Both the position numbers and the translations under genes were made by a program. DNA of 64,000 nucleotides from Candidatus Nealsonbacteria bacterium (lineage in GTDB: Bacteria > Patescibacteriota > Minisyncoccia > Minisyncoccales > PWPS01). The notes beneath the pieces were generated by a model that was not told the origin of the DNA, searched no databases, and worked only from the letters and a program-made list of their open reading frames with translations. The DNA lies in the NCBI GenBank assembly GCA_003555075.1, contig PWHW01000002.1:96210-160209 (forward strand). The letters are read 5' to 3'. Below are positions 9,931 to 47,244 of this stretch, in pieces (the first letter of the stretch is position 1; every line of letters begins with the position of its first letter).

Positions 9931-11154
9931 ATGAAAAGTATGAAAAGAAAAAGCATTATTATTTTAATTATTTTTCTTTTTGTAGCTTTGGTGGGACTTA
10001 TAGGTTTCAAAGGAACAATGGAAGAAATGAGCAAGGAAAGAGAGGAAATTACGAGGAATTATCTTGAAAAAGAGGTGGCTGATACGACATACGGAGGAGA
10101 AGTTTTTGCTGAGTTTCACACGTTTATGGTTAAAAGCAATAGAGCTTATATCTGGTCTTATACTTCCGAATACTACGAGGATGATGGGAGTGTATATCAG
10201 GGGCGTGCTAGTTCCGGACCGAGAATTATCTATTTTTCAAACGAGAAAGAACCGGTAGATCACTTTCGTCCGGGGCATGGATCTTATTACTCAGAGTCGA
10301 TAAAAGAGAAGTTTCCTTTCTACCTTCATAATAAGGTTTTAAGTTTTCCGTCCGAATCGGGAGAAGTCATTCAAAATTTAAAAGAAAAGATTGAATACAG
10401 GGCGGAGAAGTATTTTGATAAAAAAATTAGAGATCGGGAGGAAGTAGCATCAAAGAAACAGATACAAAAAGTTTACGAAGAAAAAGATCCCGAATATTGG
10501 GGGGAGATGGTTCCGGGAGTAATAAAAAGAATTGATACCGAAGAAAAAGTGGTCGCGCTTACCCTAGATGCTTGTGATGGCGATTATGATAGAGAGCTTA
10601 TAGCTCATTTAAGGAAAGAAGATATTCCCGCTACTTTGTTCATTGCATCTCCTTGGATTGAGAATAATGAAAAAGAACTTGAAGCTTTAGCCGATGACCC
10701 ACTTTTTTATATAGCGGGACACGGAAAGGATCATCTACCTCTTTCCGTGGAAGGAAAAGAAGCTTATGGAGAAAAAGGAACAGGAGGCGTAAAAGAAGTA
10801 ATGGAGGAAATTGTTTATAATAGCCGGGATATTGAGGAAGTAACAGGAAAGGAACCTTCCTACTTTCGATCGGGAACTGCTCATTATGACGAGGTTGCGG
10901 TAAGCATTGCAAATTCGTTAAATAAAAAGGTTATAGGTTTTACAGTTGCAGCAGATGGAGGAACGACATTCAGTAAAGAAGAGATAAAGGAAGCAGTTCT
11001 TGGAACAGGTCCGGGAGGAATAATTTTGGCGCATATGAACCACCCGAACTCGGAAATTGCAAAAGGATTGATAGAAGGAATAATTTCGCTCAGAGAAGAG
11101 GGTTATCGTTTTATCCATCTCAAAGAGTATGAAGATAAATTTTATGAGCTTTAG
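9931..11154 (+). CDS. membrane-anchored polysaccharide deacetylase (NodB homology) family protein
   Basis: N-terminal TM 'SIIILIIFLFVALVGLIGF'. The catalytic-domain motif 'LTLDACDGDYD' resembles TFDDG, and His-containing motifs 'IAGHGKDH' and 'ILAHMNH' are present. The start was moved downstream of tRNA-Trp to ATG 9931. Confidence 0.6.
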   Translation: MKSMKRKSIIILIIFLFVALVGLIGFKGTMEEMSKEREEITRNYLEKEVADTTYGGEVFAEFHTFMVKSNRAYIWSYTSEYYEDDGSVYQGRASSGPRIIYFSNEKEPVDHFRPGHGSYYSESIKEKFPFYLHNKVLSFPSESGEVIQNLKEKIEYRAEKYFDKKIRDREEVASKKQIQKVYEEKDPEYWGEMVPGVIKRIDTEEKVVALTLDACDGDYDRELIAHLRKEDIPATLFIASPWIENNEKELEALADDPLFYIAGHGKDHLPLSVEGKEAYGEKGTGGVKEVMEEIVYNSRDIEEVTGKEPSYFRSGTAHYDEVAVSIANSLNKKVIGFTVAADGGTTFSKEEIKEAVLGTGPGGIILAHMNHPNSEIAKGLIEGIISLREEGYRFIHLKEYEDKFYEL

Positions 11155-11247
11155 CGATCAGACTAACAAAGAGGCGATTTCATGCTATACATGATCCACA
11201 AATTTTTATGATAAAATAATTTAAGATTATTCTTAAGAAGAAATAAA

Positions 11248-12024
11248 ATGAAAAAAAAGAATTACATAATCATTGTTATTGTTTTACTTGTGATCTTTGG
11301 AGGAGTCATTTTTTTCTTGCAAAGAGATAGTGGGGATAGAGCTGTTGCGGCACCTTCGGACATAACAACAAAGGAAGATTGTGTGGAAGACGGATTTTAT
11401 TGGTATGGCGAGGCTTGTCATGCAACTCCCCAAGAGGAGGGCGATTGGTCTTGCGGAAAAAGATTCAAAGATGAGAGGGACGGAAGCACTTATTCCACCA
11501 TTGAGATAGGAGATCAATGCTGGATGGCGGAGAATATCAATTATAAGGACCATGATAAGGGAGAGAGTTGGTGCTATGAGGACGAAGAAGAAATGTGTGA
11601 AAAATATGGGAGACTGTATGATTGGGATGCGGCAATGAGCGTGTGTCCTCCGGGATGGAAATTACCATCCGATGATGATTGGAAAAAATTAGAGGGATAT
11701 GTTGATTCTACTTATGATTACGAAAATGAAGAATGGGATCAGAGGGGTTATAGGGGAGATGATGCGGGAGATCTTATAAAAGATCCGGATCATGAATGGT
11801 GTGATTCTGATTCGTGCGGAGGATTCGGTTTTAATGCCTTTCCTGCCGGGGATCGTATGATTGACGGAGAATTTAGGGATTTAGGTGATTTCAGTTCTTG
11901 GTGGACTTCCGATGAAGACAGGTTGGATGCCTGGAATCGGGTCATAGACCGTGATCATCCCTCTGTCAATCGCCATTCTATTAGCAAAGAATTCGGTATA
12001 TCAGTGAGATGTGTTGTGGAATAA
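11248..12024 (+). CDS. FISUMP-domain (Fibrobacter succinogenes major paralogous domain, TIGR02145-like) secreted protein
   Basis: Signal/TM segment followed by 'GSTYSTIEIGDQCWMAENINY...YGRLYDWDAAMSVCPPGWKLPSDDDWKKLEGYV...GFNAFPAGDR', the characteristic FISUMP pattern. Confidence 0.7.
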   Translation: MKKKNYIIIVIVLLVIFGGVIFFLQRDSGDRAVAAPSDITTKEDCVEDGFYWYGEACHATPQEEGDWSCGKRFKDERDGSTYSTIEIGDQCWMAENINYKDHDKGESWCYEDEEEMCEKYGRLYDWDAAMSVCPPGWKLPSDDDWKKLEGYVDSTYDYENEEWDQRGYRGDDAGDLIKDPDHEWCDSDSCGGFGFNAFPAGDRMIDGEFRDLGDFSSWWTSDEDRLDAWNRVIDRDHPSVNRHSISKEFGISVRCVVE

Positions 12025-37953: not shown

Positions 37954-38027
37954 TGCCGGGTCGTCTAATGGTAGGACGACGGGTTTTGGTCCCGTTAGTC
38001 GAGGTTCGAGTCCTCGCCCGGCAGCCA
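37954..38027 (+). tRNA. tRNA-Gln (TTG), CCA encoded
   Basis: Acceptor TGCCGGG/CCCGGCA, D-arm TCGTCTAATGGTAGGACG, anticodon stem ACGGG/CCCGT with loop TTTTGGT, T-arm CGAGG-TTCGAGT-CCTCG, followed by GCCA. Confidence 0.75.
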
Positions 38028-38159
38028 CGCACCAGTCGGTGCATGGCTTCGCAAGAAGACATGGAAAGACTGGTAAGTGAGGGGTGTACCGAGAGATGAA
38101 CCGTATGGTTCGTCTCGTCTGGTACGTCCCCACTAACACTGTAGAAATTTCGTTTTGAT

Positions 38160-38417
38160 ATGAAATTTTACTATGTATATATTCTAAGGAGTCTAAAGAA
38201 AGATTTTTTATATGTTGGACTAACTGAGAACTTGAAAAGAAGGTTCAAAGAGCATGATAATCAAGAAGAACTTTCCACCAAACATTTTGCGCCTTTCGAG
38301 CTTGTTCACTATGAGGCTTATAAAAACAAGAAAGATGCAGAGAGGAGAGAGCAGTATTTGAAAACGACTAAAGGGAAAACTACTTTAAGATACATGCTCC
38401 AAAACCACCTCTCCTAA
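38160..38417 (+). CDS. GIY-YIG nuclease-family small protein
   Basis: 'FYYVYILRSLKKDFLYVGLTENLKRRFKEH' GIY-YIG motif; 85 aa. Confidence 0.75.
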   Translation: MKFYYVYILRSLKKDFLYVGLTENLKRRFKEHDNQEELSTKHFAPFELVHYEAYKNKKDAERREQYLKTTKGKTTLRYMLQNHLS

Positions 38418-38531
38418 AAAATAATACCAGTGACCGATACCCCTAAAGCCCTGAGATTTTTCTCAGGGTTTTTTTATTTTTTTTATGACTGTTTTGTTAT
38501 ATAATTTGCATCAAAAAGGAGGTGATTATGA

Positions 38532-39869
38532 GTGGATAGCAGTGTTCTTTTGAAAAAATTAAATGGGTTAATAATTAGCTGTGCTAAAAGGTTCTTTATT
38601 GATGGATTGGACTTTGAAGACATGATACAGATTGGAAGAGTGGCAGCATGGAAAGGTATAGAAGATCATGAAATCACAGAAGACAACTACAAAAAGTATT
38701 TACCTCTTTTGAAAACCTATATCGTAAATGCACTTAAGACAGAATTGAAAAGAACGAAGGCAAAAAAGAGGATAAATCTTTCAGAATCAGTAAGAATTGA
38801 TGCTCCTGTCAGTTTTGAAAATGAAAGAAAGCTTCATGAACTTATAGAAGATAAAAAAAGCAGTGAAGATTTTTTTGAAAAAGAAAGGCAACAGAAGTTT
38901 CTAATGCAGCTCAAGGATCATGCTCTCAAAGAGAGGTCTCGGAAAAGCATAAAAGCTGTTGTTTGGTTTTTAGTGCATATTCTTGATATCAGAAAAGAAG
39001 AAATACCCAGAAAAATTTCATTTGAAATTTTTTACAAATTCGGTCTTCAATATTATTTATGGGTATTCTTTAACAACTCTCCTTACAGAGCTATTAACTA
39101 TGCTTATCCTGGTCAATTCTCTCCCTATGAAATGCTGAGAGTTCCAAATGGTTATTGGGGATCTGAGGGGAAAGCAGGATGGGGTAGGCGTAGGGCCATT
39201 AAAGCATTAAAAAAAGCATTGGAAAGTACCGGATATCCTCCGGAGCCCTATCCTAAAATAGCCAGCTATAGATTTTTTGTCGAAATGCGGCTTACTGCTC
39301 CCCTAAATAAGTTTTTCGGATGGAGTCAATATGCTTATTTGGACGCAGCTTTTCCCGGGAAGTATAAACCATGGGAAATGAACTTTTCTCCCAAAGGTTT
39401 CTTTGAAAAGAGAGAGAATATTGTCTCTGCCGTCAAATGGATGGTCGAGGAAAAAATGAACATCCCAATGGAGGAGCTAACAGTTTACGAGGTTTGGGAG
39501 ATGAGGATCGATAAGAAAATCACCAAAGAAATTTTTTCTTTCTATGGATTAAGAGAGGTTCTTGCTCGGTACAACAATTCTCCCGGAAAGGTGCTAAAAG
39601 ATGTTTATCCGGAAAAATTTTTACCATGGAGCTTTCCTTGTAAAGAAAAATGGAAAGGGGAAGAAGGGAAAAGATTGGCAGCACAAGCTACAAAATGGGT
39701 GATAGAGGAGTATGCGGGAATATCTCCATTGTCTTCTGAAATCGGGTATCGTTTTTTTACAGAGAATGGGCTCCATGGAATGATAACTAGCAGAAGTCTT
39801 GGCTTTAACTCATCTCCAAAGGCAGCATTGATCAATGCATATCCACATCTTAAAAGCTCTTTTGACTAA
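38532..39869 (+). CDS. hypothetical protein: sigma-70 region-2-like N-terminus plus four internal ~75-aa repeats
   Basis: GTG start 8 nt after AAGGAGGTGA. N-terminus 'FEDMIQIGRVAAWKGIEDHE' (sigma r2.2-like). Repeats of the form [FY]G..Y......SP..A...AYP..F.PWE...P.G.W (residues ~170-250, 250-330, 330-405, 405-445). Confidence 0.55.
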   Translation: MDSSVLLKKLNGLIISCAKRFFIDGLDFEDMIQIGRVAAWKGIEDHEITEDNYKKYLPLLKTYIVNALKTELKRTKAKKRINLSESVRIDAPVSFENERKLHELIEDKKSSEDFFEKERQQKFLMQLKDHALKERSRKSIKAVVWFLVHILDIRKEEIPRKISFEIFYKFGLQYYLWVFFNNSPYRAINYAYPGQFSPYEMLRVPNGYWGSEGKAGWGRRRAIKALKKALESTGYPPEPYPKIASYRFFVEMRLTAPLNKFFGWSQYAYLDAAFPGKYKPWEMNFSPKGFFEKRENIVSAVKWMVEEKMNIPMEELTVYEVWEMRIDKKITKEIFSFYGLREVLARYNNSPGKVLKDVYPEKFLPWSFPCKEKWKGEEGKRLAAQATKWVIEEYAGISPLSSEIGYRFFTENGLHGMITSRSLGFNSSPKAALINAYPHLKSSFD

Positions 39870-40026: not shown

Positions 40027-40863
40027 TTGCTTTATTATGTAAGGAAATGGATTGGTCGTTTGGATATTTTCATCTGGATAGCGGTTTTGATCTTTTTCCT
40101 TTCTTTCTCTTTTGTAAAAGAAAGGGGAGATTTCATGATGACGGTGGTTGCTTCTCTTGGAGTTATACTGGTAATGCTTTTTGTGGGAATATCGATAGAA
40201 GTTATTATCGATGTTCTCCGGAATGTAAGGGGGCTTGGCACCATTCTCGGTTTTCTTACCAATGGACCTGAGACGGTAGTGTTAATAGCGGGTGTAATGG
40301 CAGGTGACGCACTGTTTGGAAGCAGTACTCCTTTGGGATCAAGTGTGATCAATCCGATAATGCTTTTTGCGGCAGCGCTTGTTACCGGAATGACGATTAA
40401 GCTATTAAAAGCGAAAAGTATCTATGGGATGCTTTGTATCATCTTTACCATTGGCGTTTCCCTGTTGTTTTACCTTCTTCCGGAAAAGAATTATCTTACG
40501 TGGGCACTTGTTGCGCTCTTTATAACCTCCTTCTTTTTTCTTGTAAGACCAAGAGAGCAAAAGAAGAGGGATGACCCTTCGGATACTCCGTTTTGGTTCA
40601 TTGTTCCGGCAACTGCTTTGCTTTTTATTGCCGGGTATTATCTTGATCCGGCGGTTGAATTTGCCAGGCAAGTTTCAGGAGTACCAAAAAATCTTATAGG
40701 ATTTTTAGTGCTTGCGACTCTTTCCAGCTTTCCGGAATTCAAAAGCTGTTTGGTTCTTTTTAGGGAGGGACAAGTAAAATCCGCCAGCATCAATATATTT
40801 GTCAGTAATATTACTAACATTTGGCTGGCGATCATAGGGGTGGTAATTTATCTCTTGATTTAA
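40027..40863 (+). CDS. CaCA-like cation antiporter membrane protein (second copy, divergent)
   Basis: Alpha-repeat-like 'GTILGFLTNGPETVVLIAGVMAGDALFGSS' and 'LATLSSFPEFKSCLVLF'; polytopic. Confidence 0.5.
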   Translation: MLYYVRKWIGRLDIFIWIAVLIFFLSFSFVKERGDFMMTVVASLGVILVMLFVGISIEVIIDVLRNVRGLGTILGFLTNGPETVVLIAGVMAGDALFGSSTPLGSSVINPIMLFAAALVTGMTIKLLKAKSIYGMLCIIFTIGVSLLFYLLPEKNYLTWALVALFITSFFFLVRPREQKKRDDPSDTPFWFIVPATALLFIAGYYLDPAVEFARQVSGVPKNLIGFLVLATLSSFPEFKSCLVLFREGQVKSASINIFVSNITNIWLAIIGVVIYLLI

Positions 40864-40971: not shown

Positions 40972-41346
40972 GTGAAAAAGCAAACACCGTTATCAATAGG
41001 GGTCTTAATAATAGTTTTTCTCTCTGTAATAGCAATCGCTTCTTTTTTTTATTTTCATGATGTTAAGGATGATAATTGCAAGAAAATGAAGGAAGATTTA
41101 CGACTTTATGTAGAGAATAAGAATTTCTGCAATGATGTTTCCGAGTGTCAAATAGTGCAATTGATTGATTGTGATTTTGGGTTGGCCGGGGACGAGATAG
41201 ATCGGGATCATATTGAAGAAGTTTTTTCTGAATTCTACTCTCCCGAAGGGGAGTGCTGGACAGGGGAGATACCCGAATGCGAGGATCCCAAAAAAGGAAA
41301 GATTATAGCCTGCAAAAATAATAAATGTGTCTTTGAGGCTCAATAA
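40972..41346 (+). CDS. hypothetical secreted Cys-rich protein (124 aa)
   Basis: GTG start, N-terminal TM/signal, nine Cys in the mature part. Confidence 0.45.
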   Translation: MKKQTPLSIGVLIIVFLSVIAIASFFYFHDVKDDNCKKMKEDLRLYVENKNFCNDVSECQIVQLIDCDFGLAGDEIDRDHIEEVFSEFYSPEGECWTGEIPECEDPKKGKIIACKNNKCVFEAQ

Positions 41347-41412: not shown

Positions 41413-41442
41413 TTGACAATTGAAGCAATTTTTTTGTATAAT
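41413..41442 (+). promoter_or_regulatory. sigma70-like promoter
   Basis: TTGACA-N18-TATAAT. Confidence 0.5.
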
Positions 41443-41519
41443 AAAAGTATTATAAACACGAGAACTCTCGTATATTAGGGTGTTCCTTTAAAAATTAAAG
41501 ATATTAGGAGGTGAAAGGA

Positions 41520-42845
41520 TTGAAAAGATTTTTGCTTGTAATTGGTTTGCTTTTGTTTGCAGGTGTAGCGACACATTTTTACTTCTTTCCTCCTGAGAGG
41601 GAAGTAAAAGATGAAGTTCGAGAAACAAATGAAGAGGAGCTGATCGAAGAGGAAGAAAGTGGAGGGTATGTTACTTTTTGGTTTGATGACGGACTTTTGT
41701 CTACCTATGAAGTTGCATATCCTGCTTTAGAGGAGCGTGGATGGGAGGGTGCGCTTGCAATAGTGGCAGGCAGAGAAATTGCATTAGAAAAATTTGAACC
41801 AGAAGGAGATTCAATAATGAGTTGGGATCAAGTAAGGGAATTAGAAGAAAAAGGATGGGAAATATCGAGTCATTCCATGACTCATACCAATCTCTCAGAA
41901 GTAAGGGATAATGATTCCTTGAAAAAGGAGATTATTACTTCAAAAGAAATTCTTGAAGAAAAAGATTTTGAAGTGAATTCTTTTGTCTTTCCTTACGGAG
42001 ATCCCGGAAATGAAGTGGTTTATGATCTTGTTATGGAAAACTATTCCTATTGGAGATTGACCACCTCAGGTGTAAACTCTGTACCATCGACAAAGCGTTT
42101 AGAAACTCTCTTTTTGACAGAGTGTGCTGACAGAGAAGAAATTGACAAATGGATAGAAAAAACAGAGGAAAAGAGTGGTTGGCTTATTATTGTTTTGCAC
42201 TCTATTCTTGAGGAACCGATTGGTTGGTGGCAGCAAACTCCGGAGCAATTTAATATGGTATTGGAGGCTGTAGAGGAAAGTTCTTTGGAAATTGTTTTGC
42301 CCAAAGATATATTTGAAAAATATGGCTATAAAGAAGATTGCTTGTCAAATGTAGAGATCAATGAAGTTCCCAGAACAGTAATTAGTGAAAGTGATTTTAA
42401 TGATAATCAGGTAGAAATAGTTATTCCTTCAATAAACGTGAGAACTTCTTTAAAGCTTGCTTTCTCAGAAGGGGAGGAAATTGATTTTTCGTATTTAGAT
42501 GATCATCCTGTAATGATCTCGGAGAATGAAAGTCCTTTTCTTAGTTCATTAGGAGAATACGGGACAGGATTGATTCTTTGTCATCGCAATCTCTTTTTTA
42601 GAGAACTTGATAAGCTAGAAAAAGAAGAGGAGTTTATGATCGTGAAAAATGATCGTGAGATTGTTTATGAGGTTTTTGACTCTATAGAAGTTGCTCCCGA
42701 TGATGTTTGGGAGCAAGTAAAGGAGATTCATGAAAAAGGATTAAGTGCGGAGGAGTCCAATGTCATTTTGATGACTTGCACTCCCTACGGACTCGGATGG
42801 GATAGGTTACTTGTTTTCGGAAGAACGGTTGAGAATATGAATTGA
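41520..42845 (+). CDS. fusion protein: N-terminal TM, NodB polysaccharide deacetylase domain, C-terminal sortase-like domain
   Basis: NodB motifs 'VTFWFDDGLLSTYE' and 'SHSMTHTNL'. The C-terminus has sortase-like catalytic motifs 'GLILCHRN' (His), 'NVILMTCTPYG' (L-x-TC Cys) and an Arg 10 residues later ('WDRLLVFGR'). TTG 41520 follows AGGAGGTGA; the ORF-track GTG 41511 abuts the SD. Confidence 0.55.
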   Translation: MKRFLLVIGLLLFAGVATHFYFFPPEREVKDEVRETNEEELIEEEESGGYVTFWFDDGLLSTYEVAYPALEERGWEGALAIVAGREIALEKFEPEGDSIMSWDQVRELEEKGWEISSHSMTHTNLSEVRDNDSLKKEIITSKEILEEKDFEVNSFVFPYGDPGNEVVYDLVMENYSYWRLTTSGVNSVPSTKRLETLFLTECADREEIDKWIEKTEEKSGWLIIVLHSILEEPIGWWQQTPEQFNMVLEAVEESSLEIVLPKDIFEKYGYKEDCLSNVEINEVPRTVISESDFNDNQVEIVIPSINVRTSLKLAFSEGEEIDFSYLDDHPVMISENESPFLSSLGEYGTGLILCHRNLFFRELDKLEKEEEFMIVKNDREIVYEVFDSIEVAPDDVWEQVKEIHEKGLSAEESNVILMTCTPYGLGWDRLLVFGRTVENMN

Positions 42846-42875
42846 TGAATCCACAAGGAATTCAACCAGGGGGGG

Positions 42876-43949
42876 GTGATATTGGTGGGAGTTTTTGCAA
42901 TACTTCCGGCGCACAATGAGGAGAAAAATATTGGCAATGCTGTTAAAGATCTTTTATTGCAAACAGTTAAAATTGAAAAGATAATTGTAGTGGCTGACAA
43001 TTGTAGCGATGGTACTGTTGAGGAAGTTAAAAGACTTTGCAGTGAATATGCCGATATTGAGCTCATGGAAACGAAAGGGAATCATTACCGTAAAGCAGGA
43101 GCAATAAACATGGCAATAGATGTGATAAGTGATGAAGATTGCGAGTTCTTGCTTGTTATGGACTCCGATTCCAGAGTGGCATTGGATTTGGTGGAAAGAG
43201 CAATGGAATCCTTTGAGAGTGAAGAAAACCTAGGGGGAGTTTGCTCTACTGCACATGTCATTAAACCTCAAAATCTACCTTCTTCTTGGATTAGGAACCT
43301 GGAAGCTCGGTTTATGGGAGCGTTGCAGAGACTTGAATATGCTGGGTTTGATGCCGAAAGAGTTGCGACTTGGAATAATGTAACTATTCTACATGGTTTA
43401 TGTGCAGTTTATAGATTCAAAGCGATAAAGGAAGCAGGAGGATATACTCTCGGACACCTTATAGAGGATTACGATCTTACAGTGAAATTAAAGAAGCTCG
43501 GTTGGCAAGCAAGGTTTAATCCAAAAATGGTTGCTTGGACAGAAGTGCCACTGAGTTTGAAATCTTTTTTCAAACAGCGACTAAGATGGATGAGAGGCGG
43601 GATTGATGTCTTGGTGGATCATGGAATAAACAGGATTACCATAGAGGATGCATTTCATCACTTTCTTTTCATCTGCCTTCTCTTGGCAATATCAGGGTTT
43701 ATAATTCTATCTTTTATTTATCACGGAGAGTGGAGGTTCGGGTTTAATCCTCATCCAATACCTATTCTTGTAGCGATTATTGGCTACCTTATAAGTCTTT
43801 ATAAATTACGCTACTTAAAAGATGCGAGATTTTCGGAGATAATTCTAAGGATTATAATTCTCCCGGAACTCTTAATTGCGATTGCATTAATGGGGGTTCG
43901 AACATATGCGTATTTTCTAGCATTATTCAAATGCTCTCAAGAATGGTAA
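42876..43949 (+). CDS. family 2 glycosyltransferase, processive type (QxxRW), with C-terminal TM helices
   Basis: 'LPAHNEEKNIGNAV...VVADNCSDGT', DxD 'VMDSDS', 'QRLRWMRGG', and three C-terminal TM helices. Confidence 0.75.
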   Translation: MILVGVFAILPAHNEEKNIGNAVKDLLLQTVKIEKIIVVADNCSDGTVEEVKRLCSEYADIELMETKGNHYRKAGAINMAIDVISDEDCEFLLVMDSDSRVALDLVERAMESFESEENLGGVCSTAHVIKPQNLPSSWIRNLEARFMGALQRLEYAGFDAERVATWNNVTILHGLCAVYRFKAIKEAGGYTLGHLIEDYDLTVKLKKLGWQARFNPKMVAWTEVPLSLKSFFKQRLRWMRGGIDVLVDHGINRITIEDAFHHFLFICLLLAISGFIILSFIYHGEWRFGFNPHPIPILVAIIGYLISLYKLRYLKDARFSEIILRIIILPELLIAIALMGVRTYAYFLALFKCSQEW

Positions 43950-43977
43950 TAATCTTGAAGAAAGGAGGGTTGAGAAA

Positions 43978-44136
43978 ATGCCATATGGAGAAGTTGCTTT
44001 ACCGTCTACGGGTGGATTTCTTTTGGGAGGAGCAATTGGACTCTTTTACGATTGGGCCATTGCTATTGTCGTAGTGATTTTAGTTCTTTCATTAATAGGA
44101 GTGTGGAGATTGTATAGAGGTCAAAAAACAATATAA
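43978..44136 (+). CDS. 52-aa micro-protein that is essentially a complete LPXTG sorting signal
   Basis: The ATG sits 8 nt after GAAAGGAGGG. Protein: 'MPYGEVALPSTGGFLLGGAIGLFYDWAIAIVVVILVLSLIGVWRLYRGQKTI'. It has LPSTG, then a ~27-aa hydrophobic segment, then an R/K tail. Not in the ORF track (<60 aa). Confidence 0.5.
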   Translation: MPYGEVALPSTGGFLLGGAIGLFYDWAIAIVVVILVLSLIGVWRLYRGQKTI

Positions 44137-44163
44137 CACACCCTAAAAGTTCTTTCTTAAATA

Positions 44164-44191
44164 ACACGTCTTAAATTAGACGTGTTTTTTT
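44164..44191 (+). terminator. rho-independent terminator
   Basis: ACACGTCT-TAAATT-AGACGTGT followed by TTTTTTT. Confidence 0.7.
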
Positions 44192-44212
44192 GTAAAATGG
44201 ACATTATTTCTC

Positions 44213-44240
44213 TTGACATTTTTTTCATTTGACGTAGAAT
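44213..44240 (+). promoter_or_regulatory. sigma70-like promoter
   Basis: TTGACA-N16-TAGAAT. Confidence 0.5.
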
Positions 44241-44299
44241 ATAAGGACTAGATCCTATTTTTAAAATAGGAAGTTCACTAGTAAGAAAGGAGGAGTACA

Positions 44300-44845
44300 T
44301 TGAAAAAAATTTTAGAATGGATGGTCACAGGAATTCTGATTTTAGCGATCTTTCTTTTTATTTTTATGTTCATCGGCCCTAGGTTTGGCTGGGAAACCCA
44401 CCCTGTTCTTTCCGGTTCTATGGAGCCGGCCTTGGAGGTGGGGGGAATAATTGTTACTAAGCCTGAAAAGTTGGAAAATATTCAAAAAGGGGATATTATT
44501 ACGTTCCAAACAGAAGGGCCAAAAGTAACGCACCGTATAGTGGACATAAAAGAAATTGAAGGTGAACGATGGTTTCAAACCAAAGGAGACGCTAATAAGG
44601 AACCCGATCGTGACCTTGTCTCTTCTCAAGGAGATGTGATGAGAAAGGTCTTTCTCTACCTTCCTTATTTGGGCTTTGCCGCTCAATTTATGCAAAGCAA
44701 ATGGGCTTTCATTGTTCTTGTCGGAATTCCTTCTGTTATTTTAATAGGATGGCTTGGCAAGGATGTTTGGGAAGGAATTGAAGAAGAGAGAAGGAAAAAG
44801 AGGAAAAAAGAAGAGAATGAGGAAGATCGCAAGGAAGGAGAGTGA
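44300..44845 (+). CDS. SipW-type (ER/archaeal-type) signal peptidase I
   Basis: TTG start. TM followed by 'VLSGSMEPALEVGGIIV' (catalytic Ser), 'THRIV' and 'TKGDAN'. A C-terminal TM and a K/E tail. Confidence 0.7.
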   Translation: MKKILEWMVTGILILAIFLFIFMFIGPRFGWETHPVLSGSMEPALEVGGIIVTKPEKLENIQKGDIITFQTEGPKVTHRIVDIKEIEGERWFQTKGDANKEPDRDLVSSQGDVMRKVFLYLPYLGFAAQFMQSKWAFIVLVGIPSVILIGWLGKDVWEGIEEERRKKRKKEENEEDRKEGE

Positions 44846-44972
44846 TTTCCATCTATCGTTTTTATTACTAGTGATTGCACTTTTAAAAAGAGATAAGAGG
44901 TGTTGAGCTTAAAATTACTTCTTTGGATGTTTTACAATAATATGACTCCAAAGGAGAGAAAGGAGGAGTCAA

Positions 44973-45638
44973 TTGAAAAAAGTACTAGCTTTTTTCTTGG
45001 TACTTGCAATGAGTGTTGGCTTAGTTGGGGCAGGAACCACAGCATATTTTACTGACACTGAAGAATCTAGCAGTAATTCTTTTACGGCCGGAGTGTGGGA
45101 AACTGAGCAAGAAGAAGAAATTGAAGAAGATCTGATGATGCTTGAAGAGGAAACAGTTCAAGAAAGTGTTTATGATGAAAAGGAAGAACTTGACAACCCT
45201 GAAGAGTCCGGTAATGACGAGGGCACCGAAGGAGAGAACGACGAAGAAACCGAAAGTGATGATCCTGAAGGCGAAGAAACTAACGGTGAGGAACCGGAGA
45301 ATGAAGAATCCGAGGCTTCCGAAGAAGAATCAGGAGAAAATGATGTTTCTTGTGATTCTGACGATGAAGAATGCTCCGATGATGAAGAATCTATGAATGG
45401 TGATCCCGAAGATCCTCAGGACTCTGAAGACGGGGAATCCCAAGAAGAAGAAAGCGTATCAGACGAAGAAGAGAGCGGTGCTGATGAGTGCGTGGAAGAG
45501 GAAGATGAAGAGTCCGGTAATGACGAGGGCACCGAAGAAGAGAGCGACGAAGAAACCGAAAGTGATGATTCTGAAGGCGAAGAAACTAACGGTGAGGAAC
45601 CGGAGAGTGAAGAATCCGAAGCTTCCGGAGAAGAATAG
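44973..45638 (+). CDS. SipW-cognate-signal-peptide protein with a polyacidic tandem-repeat tail
   Basis: TTG start. 'AMSVGLVGAGTTAYFTDTEESSSNSFTAG' is the TasA/camelysin-class signal motif. The remaining ~175 aa is E/D/S-rich and contains two ~41-aa repeats (nt 45205-45330 and 45512-45636). Confidence 0.6.
   Translation: MKKVLAFFLVLAMSVGLVGAGTTAYFTDTEESSSNSFTAGVWETEQEEEIEEDLMMLEEETVQESVYDEKEELDNPEESGNDEGTEGENDEETESDDPEGEETNGEEPENEESEASEEESGENDVSCDSDDEECSDDEESMNGDPEDPQDSEDGESQEEESVSDEEESGADECVEEEDEESGNDEGTEEESDEETESDDSEGEETNGEEPESEESEASGEE
45205..45636 (+). repeat. two ~125-nt direct repeats inside the acidic-protein CDS
   Basis: tccggtaatgacgagggcaccgaag...gaagaaactaacggtgaggaaccggag occurs at 45205 and 45512, ~90% identical and frame-preserving. 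Confidence 0.7.
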
Positions 45639-45642
45639 GTTA

Positions 45643-45671
45643 TTGACAAAAACTGTATAATTTGTTATACT
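45643..45671 (+). promoter_or_regulatory. sigma70-like promoter
   Basis: TTGACA-N17-TATACT; the spacer contains AAAACTGTA. Confidence 0.5.
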
Positions 45672-45795
45672 GAAAAATTCTATTATGATCTTTCAAAAGA
45701 AAGGAGGCCGGAGTAAAGAGGTATGCGAAAAGCTCTTCCTTGGGAATTCACCAAAAACGGTGAAAAATCCAACTCAAGGAAGAAAGGAGGACTAG

Positions 45796-46404
45796 ATGAA
45801 AAAGAAGTTAGTTTTTAGTTTGTTGGCTCTTATGTTGGTGGTTGGACTTGTTGGAGCAGGTTCGTTTGCGGTTTTCAGTGATACGGAGAAAAGCGAGGAA
45901 AATGTTTTCCAAGCCGGAACGTTGGAGCTTGACGTGGAAGGTGCAGATGAAGGAGTTACGACATACAGTTTTGAAAACATCAAGCCCGGTGATATCGGTG
46001 GCTGGGATGGTCTTCACGACAATCCGCAATGGATTACTGAAAGGCCGCAGTGGACAGTTAAAAACACAGGTTCACTTCCGGGTGAGCTGACCGTCACTAT
46101 TGAGAATATTCGAGACTATGATGAAAATGACAACCAAATCGACACTGCAGACGGAGCGTTGTCATGGGCAATAGATATATGGTTTAAGGGTGGTGGCAGC
46201 AACTTCTGGGGACATCTTGGCAGGGGAGAACCAGCTCTTGTGATAGACTTAGATCCCGGTGATGAGATTACTGTGCAGTGTCAGTGGCAACTAGGCAGTG
46301 AGCCGAATGATGGCTGGAATGTTTTGCAAGGACATAGTACCGAATTTGACGTGAGGTTCTACCTGGAACAAACAGAAGAACCAACGGCGGATGTTTCACC
46401 ATAA
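45796..46404 (+). CDS. TasA/camelysin-family (Peptidase_M73-like) secreted protein with SipW-cognate signal peptide
   Basis: 'LMLVVGLVGAGSFAVFSDTEKSEENVFQAGTLELDV', 'FENIKPGD', 'WTVKNTGSLPGELTV'. These parallel Bacillus TasA 'AAFNDIKSKDATFASGTLDL', 'NLKPGD' and 'FQFENNGSL'. Confidence 0.7.
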   Translation: MKKKLVFSLLALMLVVGLVGAGSFAVFSDTEKSEENVFQAGTLELDVEGADEGVTTYSFENIKPGDIGGWDGLHDNPQWITERPQWTVKNTGSLPGELTVTIENIRDYDENDNQIDTADGALSWAIDIWFKGGGSNFWGHLGRGEPALVIDLDPGDEITVQCQWQLGSEPNDGWNVLQGHSTEFDVRFYLEQTEEPTADVSP

Positions 46405-46576
46405 CACAACTTACTAATAGTCAAATTTTTGAGCAACAACTCTCTTATCTCTTTCTTCAAAGCCCGAGTTATTAAACCAAACTCGGGCTTTTTTTCTTGA
46501 CAATCCACTGATTGATGATATGGTATAAAAAATTCGTTTGTTCTCTTAAAAAAATATAAGAAAGGAGGAAAAGAAA

Positions 46577-47026
46577 GTGAAAAAAGTTTTGATCAATTTC
46601 TTTGGAGTTTTTTTATTACTTTTTTTGGTGGCAATAAGTGTTCATATAATATTTTTCAAAACTCCCGAGGTAAATATCGGAATACCCGAAAGCGCAATAT
46701 TTGATTTAGAGGAAGACGGCCATTGGTACCCCGGAAAGAGAGTAGAGAAGAAAGTGGAAATAGAGAATGCCGGAAACGTGCCTGTAAAGGTGTCCTTTTT
46801 TGCTGTTCAAAAAGAGAGCAGCCCCTTAAGAGTGAGCTTTCAGCTGCCGGAAAAAGATGGGCGCAAGATTGATCCCGGAGAAAACAAGGAGGTTTTGGTC
46901 AGAGCTTATATGCCGGCTGAAACCGGAAATGCTTTTCAAGGAGAAAGATGGAAAAAGGATTTCATTTTTCGTGCCAACAAGCAAGGTGTTTTCAAAGAGC
47001 AGGATCTTTTAAAAAGGAGGTGGTGA
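46577..47026 (+). CDS. hypothetical secreted protein, possibly a divergent TasA-like domain
   Basis: GTG start after AAGGAGG. N-terminal TM. 'KKVEIENAGNVPVKVSFFAV' resembles the TasA 'FQFENNGSL' strand region. Confidence 0.35.
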   Translation: MKKVLINFFGVFLLLFLVAISVHIIFFKTPEVNIGIPESAIFDLEEDGHWYPGKRVEKKVEIENAGNVPVKVSFFAVQKESSPLRVSFQLPEKDGRKIDPGENKEVLVRAYMPAETGNAFQGERWKKDFIFRANKQGVFKEQDLLKRRW

Positions 47027-47028
47027 CA

Positions 47029-47244
47029 GTGCTGGAGCTGGAAGTAAAAAAAGGAAGGTTTGGTAATAGATCGGTAATAGAGCTTGCAAAGAATGGAAAA
47101 GTGGTCGCAACCATATATCCGGAAGGAGAGAGTGCCATAAAAATAGCAACGGACTACAGGAGAATAGAGGTGAATGATGGAAAGGAGTTCGTGCCCAATG
47201 TTCCTGTTATTATCATTGAGCCAAAAGTGGAGAATGATAAATGA
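47029..47244 (+). CDS. hypothetical small protein (71 aa)
   Basis: A GTG start 7 nt after AAAAAGGAGGTGGTGA seems more plausible than the ORF-track ATG at 46948, which overlaps the upstream gene. Confidence 0.35.
   Translation: MLELEVKKGRFGNRSVIELAKNGKVVATIYPEGESAIKIATDYRRIEVNDGKEFVPNVPVIIIEPKVENDK

Follow-up and report, generated by a model that had tools for sequence, protein, structure and literature searches.

Sortases are known to attach proteins to peptidoglycan or to one another, and some have a single dedicated, co-encoded substrate, as in the pair SrtB and IsdC or the class GN 'marine' sortase with its one target. Exopolysaccharide systems of the icaADBC and pgaABCD type have a QxxRW family-2 glycosyltransferase (GT2) as synthase, a small membrane protein (IcaD or PgaD) encoded beside it, and an extracytoplasmic CE4 de-N-acetylase that acts on the exported polymer. 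Here we analyse a locus with features of both, located in 64,000 nucleotides (the window) of contig PWHW01000002.1 from a Candidatus Nealsonbacteria bacterium, a member of the candidate phyla radiation (CPR). The locus comprises unit A (window positions 41413-44186), with a deacetylase-sortase fusion, a GT2 and an LPXTG micro-protein, and unit B (44213-47026), with a SipW-type signal peptidase and TasA-like proteins. All features of the two units lie on the plus strand, and the open reading frame (ORF) list of the window has an ORF at every gene coordinate given. Taken as a whole, unit A is in our view best explained as a self-contained, CPR-wide, sortase-coupled exopolysaccharide synthase, a reading to which we give a probability of roughly 0.55.

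The likeness of unit A to icaADBC and pgaABCD lies in the QxxRW synthase, the adjacent small membrane protein in the IcaD/PgaD position and the extracytoplasmic CE4 domain. The differences are considerable. With 108 bits against 422, the GT2 of unit A falls well short of the equivalog level, and it lacks an N-terminal transmembrane helix, while the small protein has one transmembrane helix and an LPxTG motif, with no detectable similarity to IcaD or PgaD. Moreover, unit A adds a sortase, and it has no counterpart of PgaA or IcaC. Like the dedicated sortase-substrate pairs, unit A places a specialised sortase, with its triad intact, beside the only LPXTG-type substrate. Unlike in those pairs, however, the substrate lacks a signal peptide and also a passenger, as the motif is preceded by only 3-8 residues. 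The sortase, again unlike in those pairs, forms one polypeptide with a carbohydrate esterase, is encoded inside a polysaccharide synthase operon and reaches no curated class threshold.

Three further systems offer partial parallels. In the Nod factor pathway, the GT2 NodC makes a GlcNAc (N-acetylglucosamine) oligomer, NodB deacetylates it and NodA N-acylates it with a fatty acid, and NodB and NodA are cytoplasmic. The deacetylase of unit A is of the NodB family, and the same logic of synthase, deacetylase and acyl transfer may apply. In unit A, by contrast, both the deacetylase and the sortase lie outside the cytoplasm, and a peptide made on the ribosome would take the place of the fatty acid. 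PEP-CTERM/exosortase systems, with those of XrtG and XrtP, are tied to exopolysaccharide loci (Haft 2006, PMC1569441), and they resemble unit A in that a protein-sorting transpeptidase is genetically linked to exopolysaccharide glycosyltransferases and a CE4 deacetylase. Unit A proteins give weak matches to the NCBIfam models for the XrtG- and XrtP-associated GT2 and the XrtA-system deacetylase. Exosortases, however, are polytopic membrane proteins unrelated to the unit A enzyme, which has a true sortase fold and a single micro-protein substrate, whereas a genome encodes many PEP-CTERM substrates for exosortases. A precedent for protein carboxyl transpeptidation onto a glycan-borne amine is PorU of the type IX secretion system (PMC4560394), although this enzyme is unrelated, belongs to the diderm outer membrane and handles large proteins, as opposed to the nonapeptide of unit A.

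About 22 distinct CPR loci with the module were gathered by homologue look-up and by scans of genome and metagenome contigs, and each related locus compared carries a label of L plus a number. One contig stops too early to judge the pair of GT2 and micro-protein, leaving 21 assessable loci. By record title the loci come from Saccharibacteria, Dojkabacteria, WWE3, Nealsonbacteria and others, and the homologues of the fusion protein are all from Patescibacteria/CPR metagenome bins. NCBI contig PUOL01000024.1, among others, carries the same genes as the window. An L10 leader and tRNAs of bacterial type mark the window itself as bacterial DNA. Two short module contigs were deposited as metagenome-assembled genomes (MAGs) of a 'Bacillota bacterium' (L008) and an 'archaeon' (L011), and are probably mis-binned given their CPR-like content.

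The deacetylase, sortase, GT2 and micro-protein are a conserved functional set. The pair of GT2 and micro-protein is present in all 21 assessable loci, with the micro-ORF encoding 52-68 amino acids and lying 13-45 nucleotides 3' of the GT2 gene wherever the contig runs beyond GT2 (21 loci). A CE4 deacetylase is found in 21 of the 22 loci, and a sortase of the module type in 18 of 22, fused to CE4 in 16 and encoded by a separate adjacent gene in two (L039/L040 and L045). The GT2 gene stands directly 3' of the deacetylase, the deacetylase-sortase fusion or the stand-alone sortase in every related locus whose contig is long enough. The stand-alone sortases (230-236 amino acids) lie directly 5' of the GT2-micro-protein pair. 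Their identity to the fused domain, linker region included, is 37% (E 7e-30), and they score 152-193 bits on a hidden Markov model (HMM) of the fused domains. On this comparison we regard the stand-alone enzyme as the orthologue of the fused domain, and the sortase as part of the module and not just of the fusion. In L039, a CE4 deacetylase of 582 amino acids is encoded divergently downstream.

Two loci deserve mention beside this set. In L044 (1180-7240, minus strand), a second, conventional sortase of 223 amino acids and an 1802-residue surface protein with CLIPPER repeats are encoded divergently 5' of the module, so that the module sortase is distinct from a co-resident cargo-anchoring sortase. 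In L014, a gammaproteobacterial MAG, a distant deacetylase and GT2 (27-28% identity) are followed by a 127-residue polytopic membrane protein (10001-11766). Because this protein stands in the place of the LPxTG micro-protein, the latter seems to be specific to the CPR version.

The micro-protein gene (43978-44136) was identified from conservation and family alignments. Its product of 52 residues reads MPYGEVALPSTGG, followed by a transmembrane segment and the tail RLYRGQKTI; the N-terminal part is MPYGEVA, with Tyr at position 3, and then LPSTGG. The elements come in the order of a sorting signal: LPSTGG, the transmembrane segment at residues 27-45 and the basic tail. Across all six frames of the whole 64-kb window, this is the sole ORF with an LPXTG-type sorting signal. 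It has neither a signal peptide nor a passenger, since the motif begins after only seven residues (3-8 in the family as a whole). Pfam and NCBIfam contain no model for the micro-protein, and none of the NCBIfam LPXTG-anchor models matched it at E <= 0.1. A profile search of a set of 5.8 billion proteins returned 24 micro-protein clusters, none of them informatively named and nearly all unnamed or 'hypothetical'. When 1.84 billion representatives were scanned exhaustively with HMMER, 59 clusters were obtained, counted at 50% identity, whose members are all 49-96 amino acids long.

The family aligns from end to end. After the initial Met there is a nearly universal Tyr at position 2-4, often a Gly-Pro, the motif [LIV]-P-x-T-G-G-G, one transmembrane segment and a basic tail that resembles R-L-R-K-G-E-K. 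A canonical [LIV]PxTG occurs in about 64 of 73 family sequences, 4-10 residues from the N-terminus and mostly followed by GG. The exceptions are LPxTSGG in three sequences, VI[TA]TGGG in two of WWE3 type, and LAATGGG, VALTATGGG and IPALGGG in one each. Given this conservation of position, length, motif, transmembrane segment and tail over 21 loci and 59 clusters, we take the micro-ORF to be a real conserved gene and its motif not to be chance. Its features fit an N-out/C-in topology, with LPxTG predicted outside and the basic tail inside. We consider it likely that the micro-protein is a dedicated sortase substrate within a polysaccharide pathway.

The enzyme expected to act on it is encoded at 41511-42845, and was characterised from Pfam, alignment and an AlphaFold2 (AF2) model. 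It is a membrane-anchored CE4/NodB polysaccharide deacetylase with a sortase domain, 444 amino acids long, and a transmembrane scan places its hydrophobic N-terminal anchor at residues 7-25. Polysacc_deac_1 (PF01522) matches residues 50-172 with 52.6 bits (cut-off 23.1) and Sortase (PF04203) residues 305-439 with 41.6 bits (cut-off 26.6). In an alignment with eight homologues of 35-48% identity, neither the sortase triad of H358 (LILCHR), C423 (LMTCTPYG) and R432 nor the CE4 residues D59/D60 (FWFDDG), H121/H125 (HSxTH) and H230 (LH) vary. The Arg of CE4 motif 3 was not identified in the fusion protein. The AF2 model (pLDDT 80.2) has folded domains at 51-272 and 290-441, joined by a disordered linker at 273-287. 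In Foldseek, the nearest structures to the sortase domain are class C sortases, then classes E and D (E 2e-9, target TM-score about 0.55-0.65). Class C sortases use a non-peptidoglycan amine, the pilin Lys, as nucleophile.

The GT2 gene (42876-43949) encodes 357 amino acids of a processive-type enzyme with the motif QRLRW. Three GT2 Pfam families match at 75-78 bits (Glyco_trans_2_3 74.7). The transmembrane scan finds hydrophobic segments only in the C-terminal part, between residues 254 and 350, with the transmembrane segments at 263-350, and no N-terminal transmembrane segment. The best PDB match is BcsA (E 4e-8). The best curated model is PgaC/IcaA with 107.8 bits, which misses the equivalog level of 422.3 bits. 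This model, the constant CE4 partner and the neighbouring genes, GlmS beside L002 and GH18 beside L041 and L046, are weak hints of a GlcNAc polymer.

Unit A begins with a promoter-like TTGACA-18-TATAAT at 41413-41442, which matches the consensus at 12 of 12 positions, and ends with a terminator-like hairpin at 44163-44186, made up of a 9-bp stem followed by TTTTTGT. The micro-protein gene has AGGAGG 9 nucleotides 5' of its start. A first-pass annotation made from the bare sequence had described this promoter, a membrane-anchored NodB deacetylase fused to a sortase with its His, Cys and Arg, a QxxRW processive-type GT2 and a 52-residue LPSTG gene with a strong ribosome-binding site and terminator. 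It had also placed a new promoter before a SipW-type peptidase. Each of these proposals holds, and the profiles Polysacc_deac_1, Sortase, GT2 and PF12389 all score above cut-off. Directly 5' of the promoter there is an ORF of 124 amino acids (40972-41346), with a hydrophobic segment at residues 7-25 and several Cys, which matches no Pfam or NCBIfam family.

We suggest the following mechanism for unit A. The GT2 and the micro-protein would form a membrane synthase, in which the micro-protein, in the position of an IcaD/PgaD-type partner, would supply one N-out/C-in transmembrane helix to a GT2 that has no N-terminal helices. A partnership of this kind is proposed because of the strict adjacency of the two genes, the few transmembrane helices of the GT2 and the persistence of the micro-protein where the sortase is absent. 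The synthase would export a GlcNAc-containing beta-glycan, and the membrane-tethered CE4 domain would de-N-acetylate the polymer as it emerges. The sortase, whether fused to CE4 or encoded beside the GT2, would cut the extracellular LPxTGGG of the micro-protein between Thr and Gly and hold the N-terminal peptide of 8-11 residues, which contains the Tyr, as a thioacyl intermediate. The peptide would then be passed to a primary amine, preferably the glucosamine (GlcN) amine newly freed by the adjacent CE4 domain. The product would be a surface glycan capped or decorated with peptide.

The GlcN amine is favoured as acceptor for several reasons, although it remains a rather doubtful choice. Enzyme fusion usually marks consecutive steps, the logic parallels that of NodC, NodB and NodA, and the nearest sortases, those of class C, use non-peptidoglycan amines. 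In addition, sortase A is reported to couple peptides with sugars in vitro (Samantaray 2008, reference 14 of PMC6414994), and PorU, whose sortase-like mechanism joins proteins to A-LPS (PMC4560394), is a natural precedent. That a dedicated CPR sortase, usually fused to CE4, takes the passenger-less micro-protein as acyl donor for a covalent peptide-polysaccharide conjugate is possible but short of an even chance. Such a sortase reaction, hitherto unrecognised, would either amidate the GlcN amine that the deacetylase has exposed or transfer a Tyr-linked glycan to the wall.

Several observations weigh against our preferred reading. We infer, and do not observe, the complex of GT2 and micro-protein, the sortase cleavage, the GlcNAc polymer, the product and the acceptor. 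The sequence does not reveal the product specificity of the GT2, with 108 against 422 bits for PgaC/IcaA, and the sortase does not reach the threshold of any of the curated classes A-F, the best being class C with 45.5 bits (cut-off 160); TIGR01076 gives 34.4 against 39.35. In the WWE3-type micro-proteins with VI[TA]TGGG, the Pro of the motif is missing. L045 has the sortase, GT2 and micro-protein, while a CE4 HMM finds no deacetylase on its 16-kb contig, which makes the case for the GlcN amine weaker. Four loci without a sortase (L009, L010, L022 and L043) keep the micro-protein and its Tyr, so that the micro-protein has a role independent of the sortase, and in L010 and L022 the LPxTGGG is even perfect. 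No stand-alone sortase was found within the flanks of these four loci. Finally, a peptide on the glycan would leave the glycan unanchored, and a simple acyl transfer leaves the invariant Tyr unexplained.

Some details of these loci should be added. A 558-residue divergent neighbour in L045 was considered as the deacetylase and rejected, as it is unrelated to the deacetylase of L039. In L043, a tandem double CE4 deacetylase (600-2141) replaces the CE4-sortase fusion and the motif is LPVTSGG, with Gly changed to Ser at the scissile position. LPVTSGG is found in the sortase-less L009 and L043, and T-G is kept in each of the 17 loci that have a sortase and whose micro-protein is known. The pattern is suggestive of decay of the motif after loss of the sortase; L009 and L043 are related, and would represent about one event.

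The persistence of the micro-protein without a sortase is also a ground for another explanation, in which the micro-protein is only an IcaD/PgaD-like accessory and the sortase docks the deacetylase onto it at the channel exit, trims it as a maturation or regulatory step, or sets the short peptide free as a signal, with no bond between peptide and glycan. The GT2-micro-protein pair as the only invariant core, the micro-protein kept in the four sortase-less loci and the few transmembrane helices of the GT2, none of them N-terminal, would all fit, and conservation of the cytoplasmic tail (RLRKGEK) suggests that it touches the GT domain. We nevertheless regard this explanation as unlikely, as the TCTPYG motif and a triad of His, Cys and Arg that never varies point to catalysis and not to docking. 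Furthermore, loss of 8-11 residues has no obvious regulatory effect, and LPxTG plus GG is conserved far beyond the needs of a generic extracellular tail.

A second explanation is that the glycan is primed on protein, being covalently built on the N-terminal peptide of the micro-protein, for example on the invariant Tyr, and tethered to the membrane until the sortase moves the glycan-peptide to peptidoglycan. The model is GspA of Actinomyces oris, which is LCP-glycosylated and sortase-anchored. The invariant Tyr, the CE4-less L045 and the motif in sortase-less loci are explained better in this way than by our preferred reading: the Tyr and the minimal 'passenger' would have a function, a core of sortase, GT2 and micro-protein would suffice, and membrane tethering would still work where there is no sortase, so that the micro-protein would be kept. 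The strict adjacency of the GT2 and micro-protein genes would also be accounted for, and the system would have an obvious purpose, namely anchoring. Yet an unprecedented priming step is needed, as we know of no processive GT2 synthase that primes on a protein Tyr. The N-terminus of the micro-protein is extracellular by the positive-inside rule, away from the cytoplasmic active site of the glycosyltransferase, and the module encodes no glycan-to-protein transferase. The fusion of sortase to deacetylase is also left unexplained. On balance, protein priming appears quite unlikely.

The first-pass annotation had instead joined sortase/LPXTG, SipW/TasA and deacetylase-GT2 into one machine for a polysaccharide-decorated fibre or matrix. 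We find this improbable, and consider A and B very likely to be two independent units, as judged from sequence features and synteny. The terminator of unit A at 44163-44186 is followed by a new promoter-like TTGACA-16-TAGAAT at 44213-44240 (11 of 12 consensus positions), which indicates two transcription units, each with its own signals. Further promoter-like sites lie at 45643 and 46497. When phmmer queries for SipW, TasA1, TasA2 and P149 and a TasA-like HMM were run over about 46 fetched loci, only the copies of the window itself, L022 and the TasA-seeded L042 matched the SipW/TasA queries. SipW and TasA thus accompany the module in two of the 22 loci (the window and L022), with none within the available flanks of the approximately 20 others. 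A conserved gene order exists for unit A but not for unit B alongside it. L042, a TasA-homologue locus of another CPR genome, has no GT2/micro-protein module nearby, and none of the TasA-like proteins has an LPXTG signal.

What speaks for a single machine is that the units adjoin here and, in another order, in the closest relative L022 (deacetylase 58% identical). There the genes run TasA-like, SipW, acidic SipW-dependent protein, sortase-less deacetylase, GT2 and micro-protein. This rearranged recurrence is mildly suggestive of a link between the units, for example an anionic tail that binds a cationic glycan: the polyacidic tail of a unit B protein (45% D/E) could bind a polycationic de-N-acetylated glycan. 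However, L022 has no sortase at all. Lastly, the view that the LPSTG micro-ORF is a chance ORF with a coincidental motif, to which its mere 52 codons and the lack of a Pfam or NCBIfam match might lend colour, is virtually impossible and was rejected, since position, length, motif, transmembrane segment and tail are kept in 21 loci and 59 representative clusters, and the gene has a strong Shine-Dalgarno sequence and its own terminator.

As a sortase-coupled exopolysaccharide synthase, unit A would be of interest in several respects. It is a conserved module and apparently an undescribed one. Neither the module nor its fusion protein nor the micro-protein family was found described in a literature search, though with incomplete text coverage this is absence of evidence only; a 2026 preprint on the 'Pam pilus' of CPR bacteria concerns an unrelated system. 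The underlying chemistry, in which a sortase would make peptide-glycan conjugates, stands a substantial chance of being new. A deacetylase-fused sortase would carry sortase chemistry to glycans, or else reveal a new kind of synthase subunit, and so would its only co-encoded substrate, a nearly cargo-less sorting signal strictly tied to a glycan synthase. The CPR lineages with the module (Saccharibacteria, Dojkabacteria, WWE3 and those of Parcubacteria type) grow on the cells of hosts, and next to nothing is known about the biology of their surfaces. For these episymbionts a peptide-polysaccharide conjugate made by either route would be a new way to build or anchor an adhesive glycan on the cell surface, and attachment could plausibly be mediated by a partly de-N-acetylated, adhesive GlcNAc polymer to which a peptide is covalently joined as a handle. 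The module is small, with three genes and a peptide substrate of 9-12 residues, and it could also serve as a natural peptide-to-aminosugar ligase.

Unit B is a CPR example of an already known fibre system, and TasA homologues have been noted in Patescibacteria before (PMC9245690). Its first gene (44300-44845) encodes a signal peptidase I of the endoplasmic reticulum (ER)/archaeal type, that is, of SipW type. TIGR02228 gives 106.9 bits (cut-off 51.85), the boxes SGSMEP and VTHRIV can be read in the sequence, and the nearest PDB relatives are SEC11A/C. The equivalog model for Bacillus SipW is not reached (118.5 bits against 190). The protein of 45796-46404 belongs to the TasA/camelysin family, with 42.8 bits for PF12389 (cut-off 22.5) over the N-terminal 66 residues only and 37.1 bits for TIGR04088 (cut-off 19). 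Its family profile matches Bacillus subtilis TasA (8aur/5of1) with E 2-3e-5 over positions 28-194, about the whole mature domain, and its AF2 model is a beta-sandwich (pLDDT 75.8). We take its homology to TasA to be established by the profile comparison.

The protein encoded between these two (44973-45638) consists of a signal peptide, a TasA-type N-terminal strand (AYFTDTEESSSNSFTAGVW) and a polyacidic tail, and nothing more. It scores 41.5 bits on TIGR04088 (cut-off 19) and 21.9 bits on PF12389, just below the cut-off of 22.5, and 99 of its 221 residues (45%) are D or E. The tail had been called tandem-repeated; it is acidic and its gene does contain a 131-nucleotide direct repeat, but the two copies (45200-45330 and 45506-45636, 95% identical) are 306 nucleotides apart and not head-to-tail. 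Other assemblies of the same organism break within this gene at the repeat (L037 13454-13894, L038 6920-7174). The repeat probably hampers assembly, and the number of its copies may differ. In L022, a protein encoded between SipW and the deacetylase (1575-2195) has a SipW-cognate signal, a strand FFTAQTE...SLSAGFW and a long, acidic, lysine-rich tail of low complexity. A partner made of donor strand and charged tail may thus be a recurring feature of CPR SipW/TasA operons.

In unit B the SipW-type peptidase would process both the full TasA-like subunit and the protein with strand and polyacidic tail. In TasA fibres, the N-terminal strand is the donor, and TapA donates its N-terminus (PMC10151520; for the TapA strand also PMC9674648). 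By analogy, fibres of unit B may form by donor-strand exchange, and the 44973-45638 protein, as a strand donor only, would be a TapA-like nucleator or cap that displays an anionic tail. The operon resembles tapA-sipW-tasA of B. subtilis in combining a dedicated signal peptidase of ER type with TasA-family proteins that bear SipW-cognate signals, and in that one partner could act via its N-terminal strand, as TapA does (PMC10151520). It differs in that the peptidase does not reach the equivalog cut-off for SipW, sipW comes first, the partner has a polyacidic tail only and no folded domain, and the host is a CPR bacterium. Such a partner of donor strand and polyacidic tail is an unusual element in a known fibre system.

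Three secreted proteins had been proposed for unit B. Two have SipW-cognate signals according to TIGR04088, while the third (46577-47026, 149 amino acids) has a hydrophobic N-terminal segment at residues 4-22 in the transmembrane scan, only a weak TasA-like motif at the C-terminus, and no significant family (PF12389 E 0.085; TIGR04090 20.1 against 60). Its hhalign probability against the TasA-like profile is 13%, none of the fetched loci has a homologue, and it was rejected as a TasA/camelysin member as PF12389, TIGR04090 and hhalign all fall short. An ORF of 98 codons (46948-47244), with no signal peptide or family match, overlaps the 3' end of this gene by 79 nucleotides in another frame.

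Upstream of the locus, a stretch at 37954-39869 starts with a tRNA-Gln gene and a stand-alone ORF of 85 amino acids (38160-38417), GIY-YIG-like by eye only. It is followed by a 445-residue protein with weak matches to sigma-70 region 2 and DUF4046 in precomputed Pfam results, an unusual pairing. Just 5' of the module there is a Na/Ca-exchanger gene in the window (40027-40863) and in the WWE3 locus L005 (5221-7164), and a Dus gene in the same part of L005 and in L039 (4566-5702). These neighbours hint at an old, vertically kept synteny around the module.

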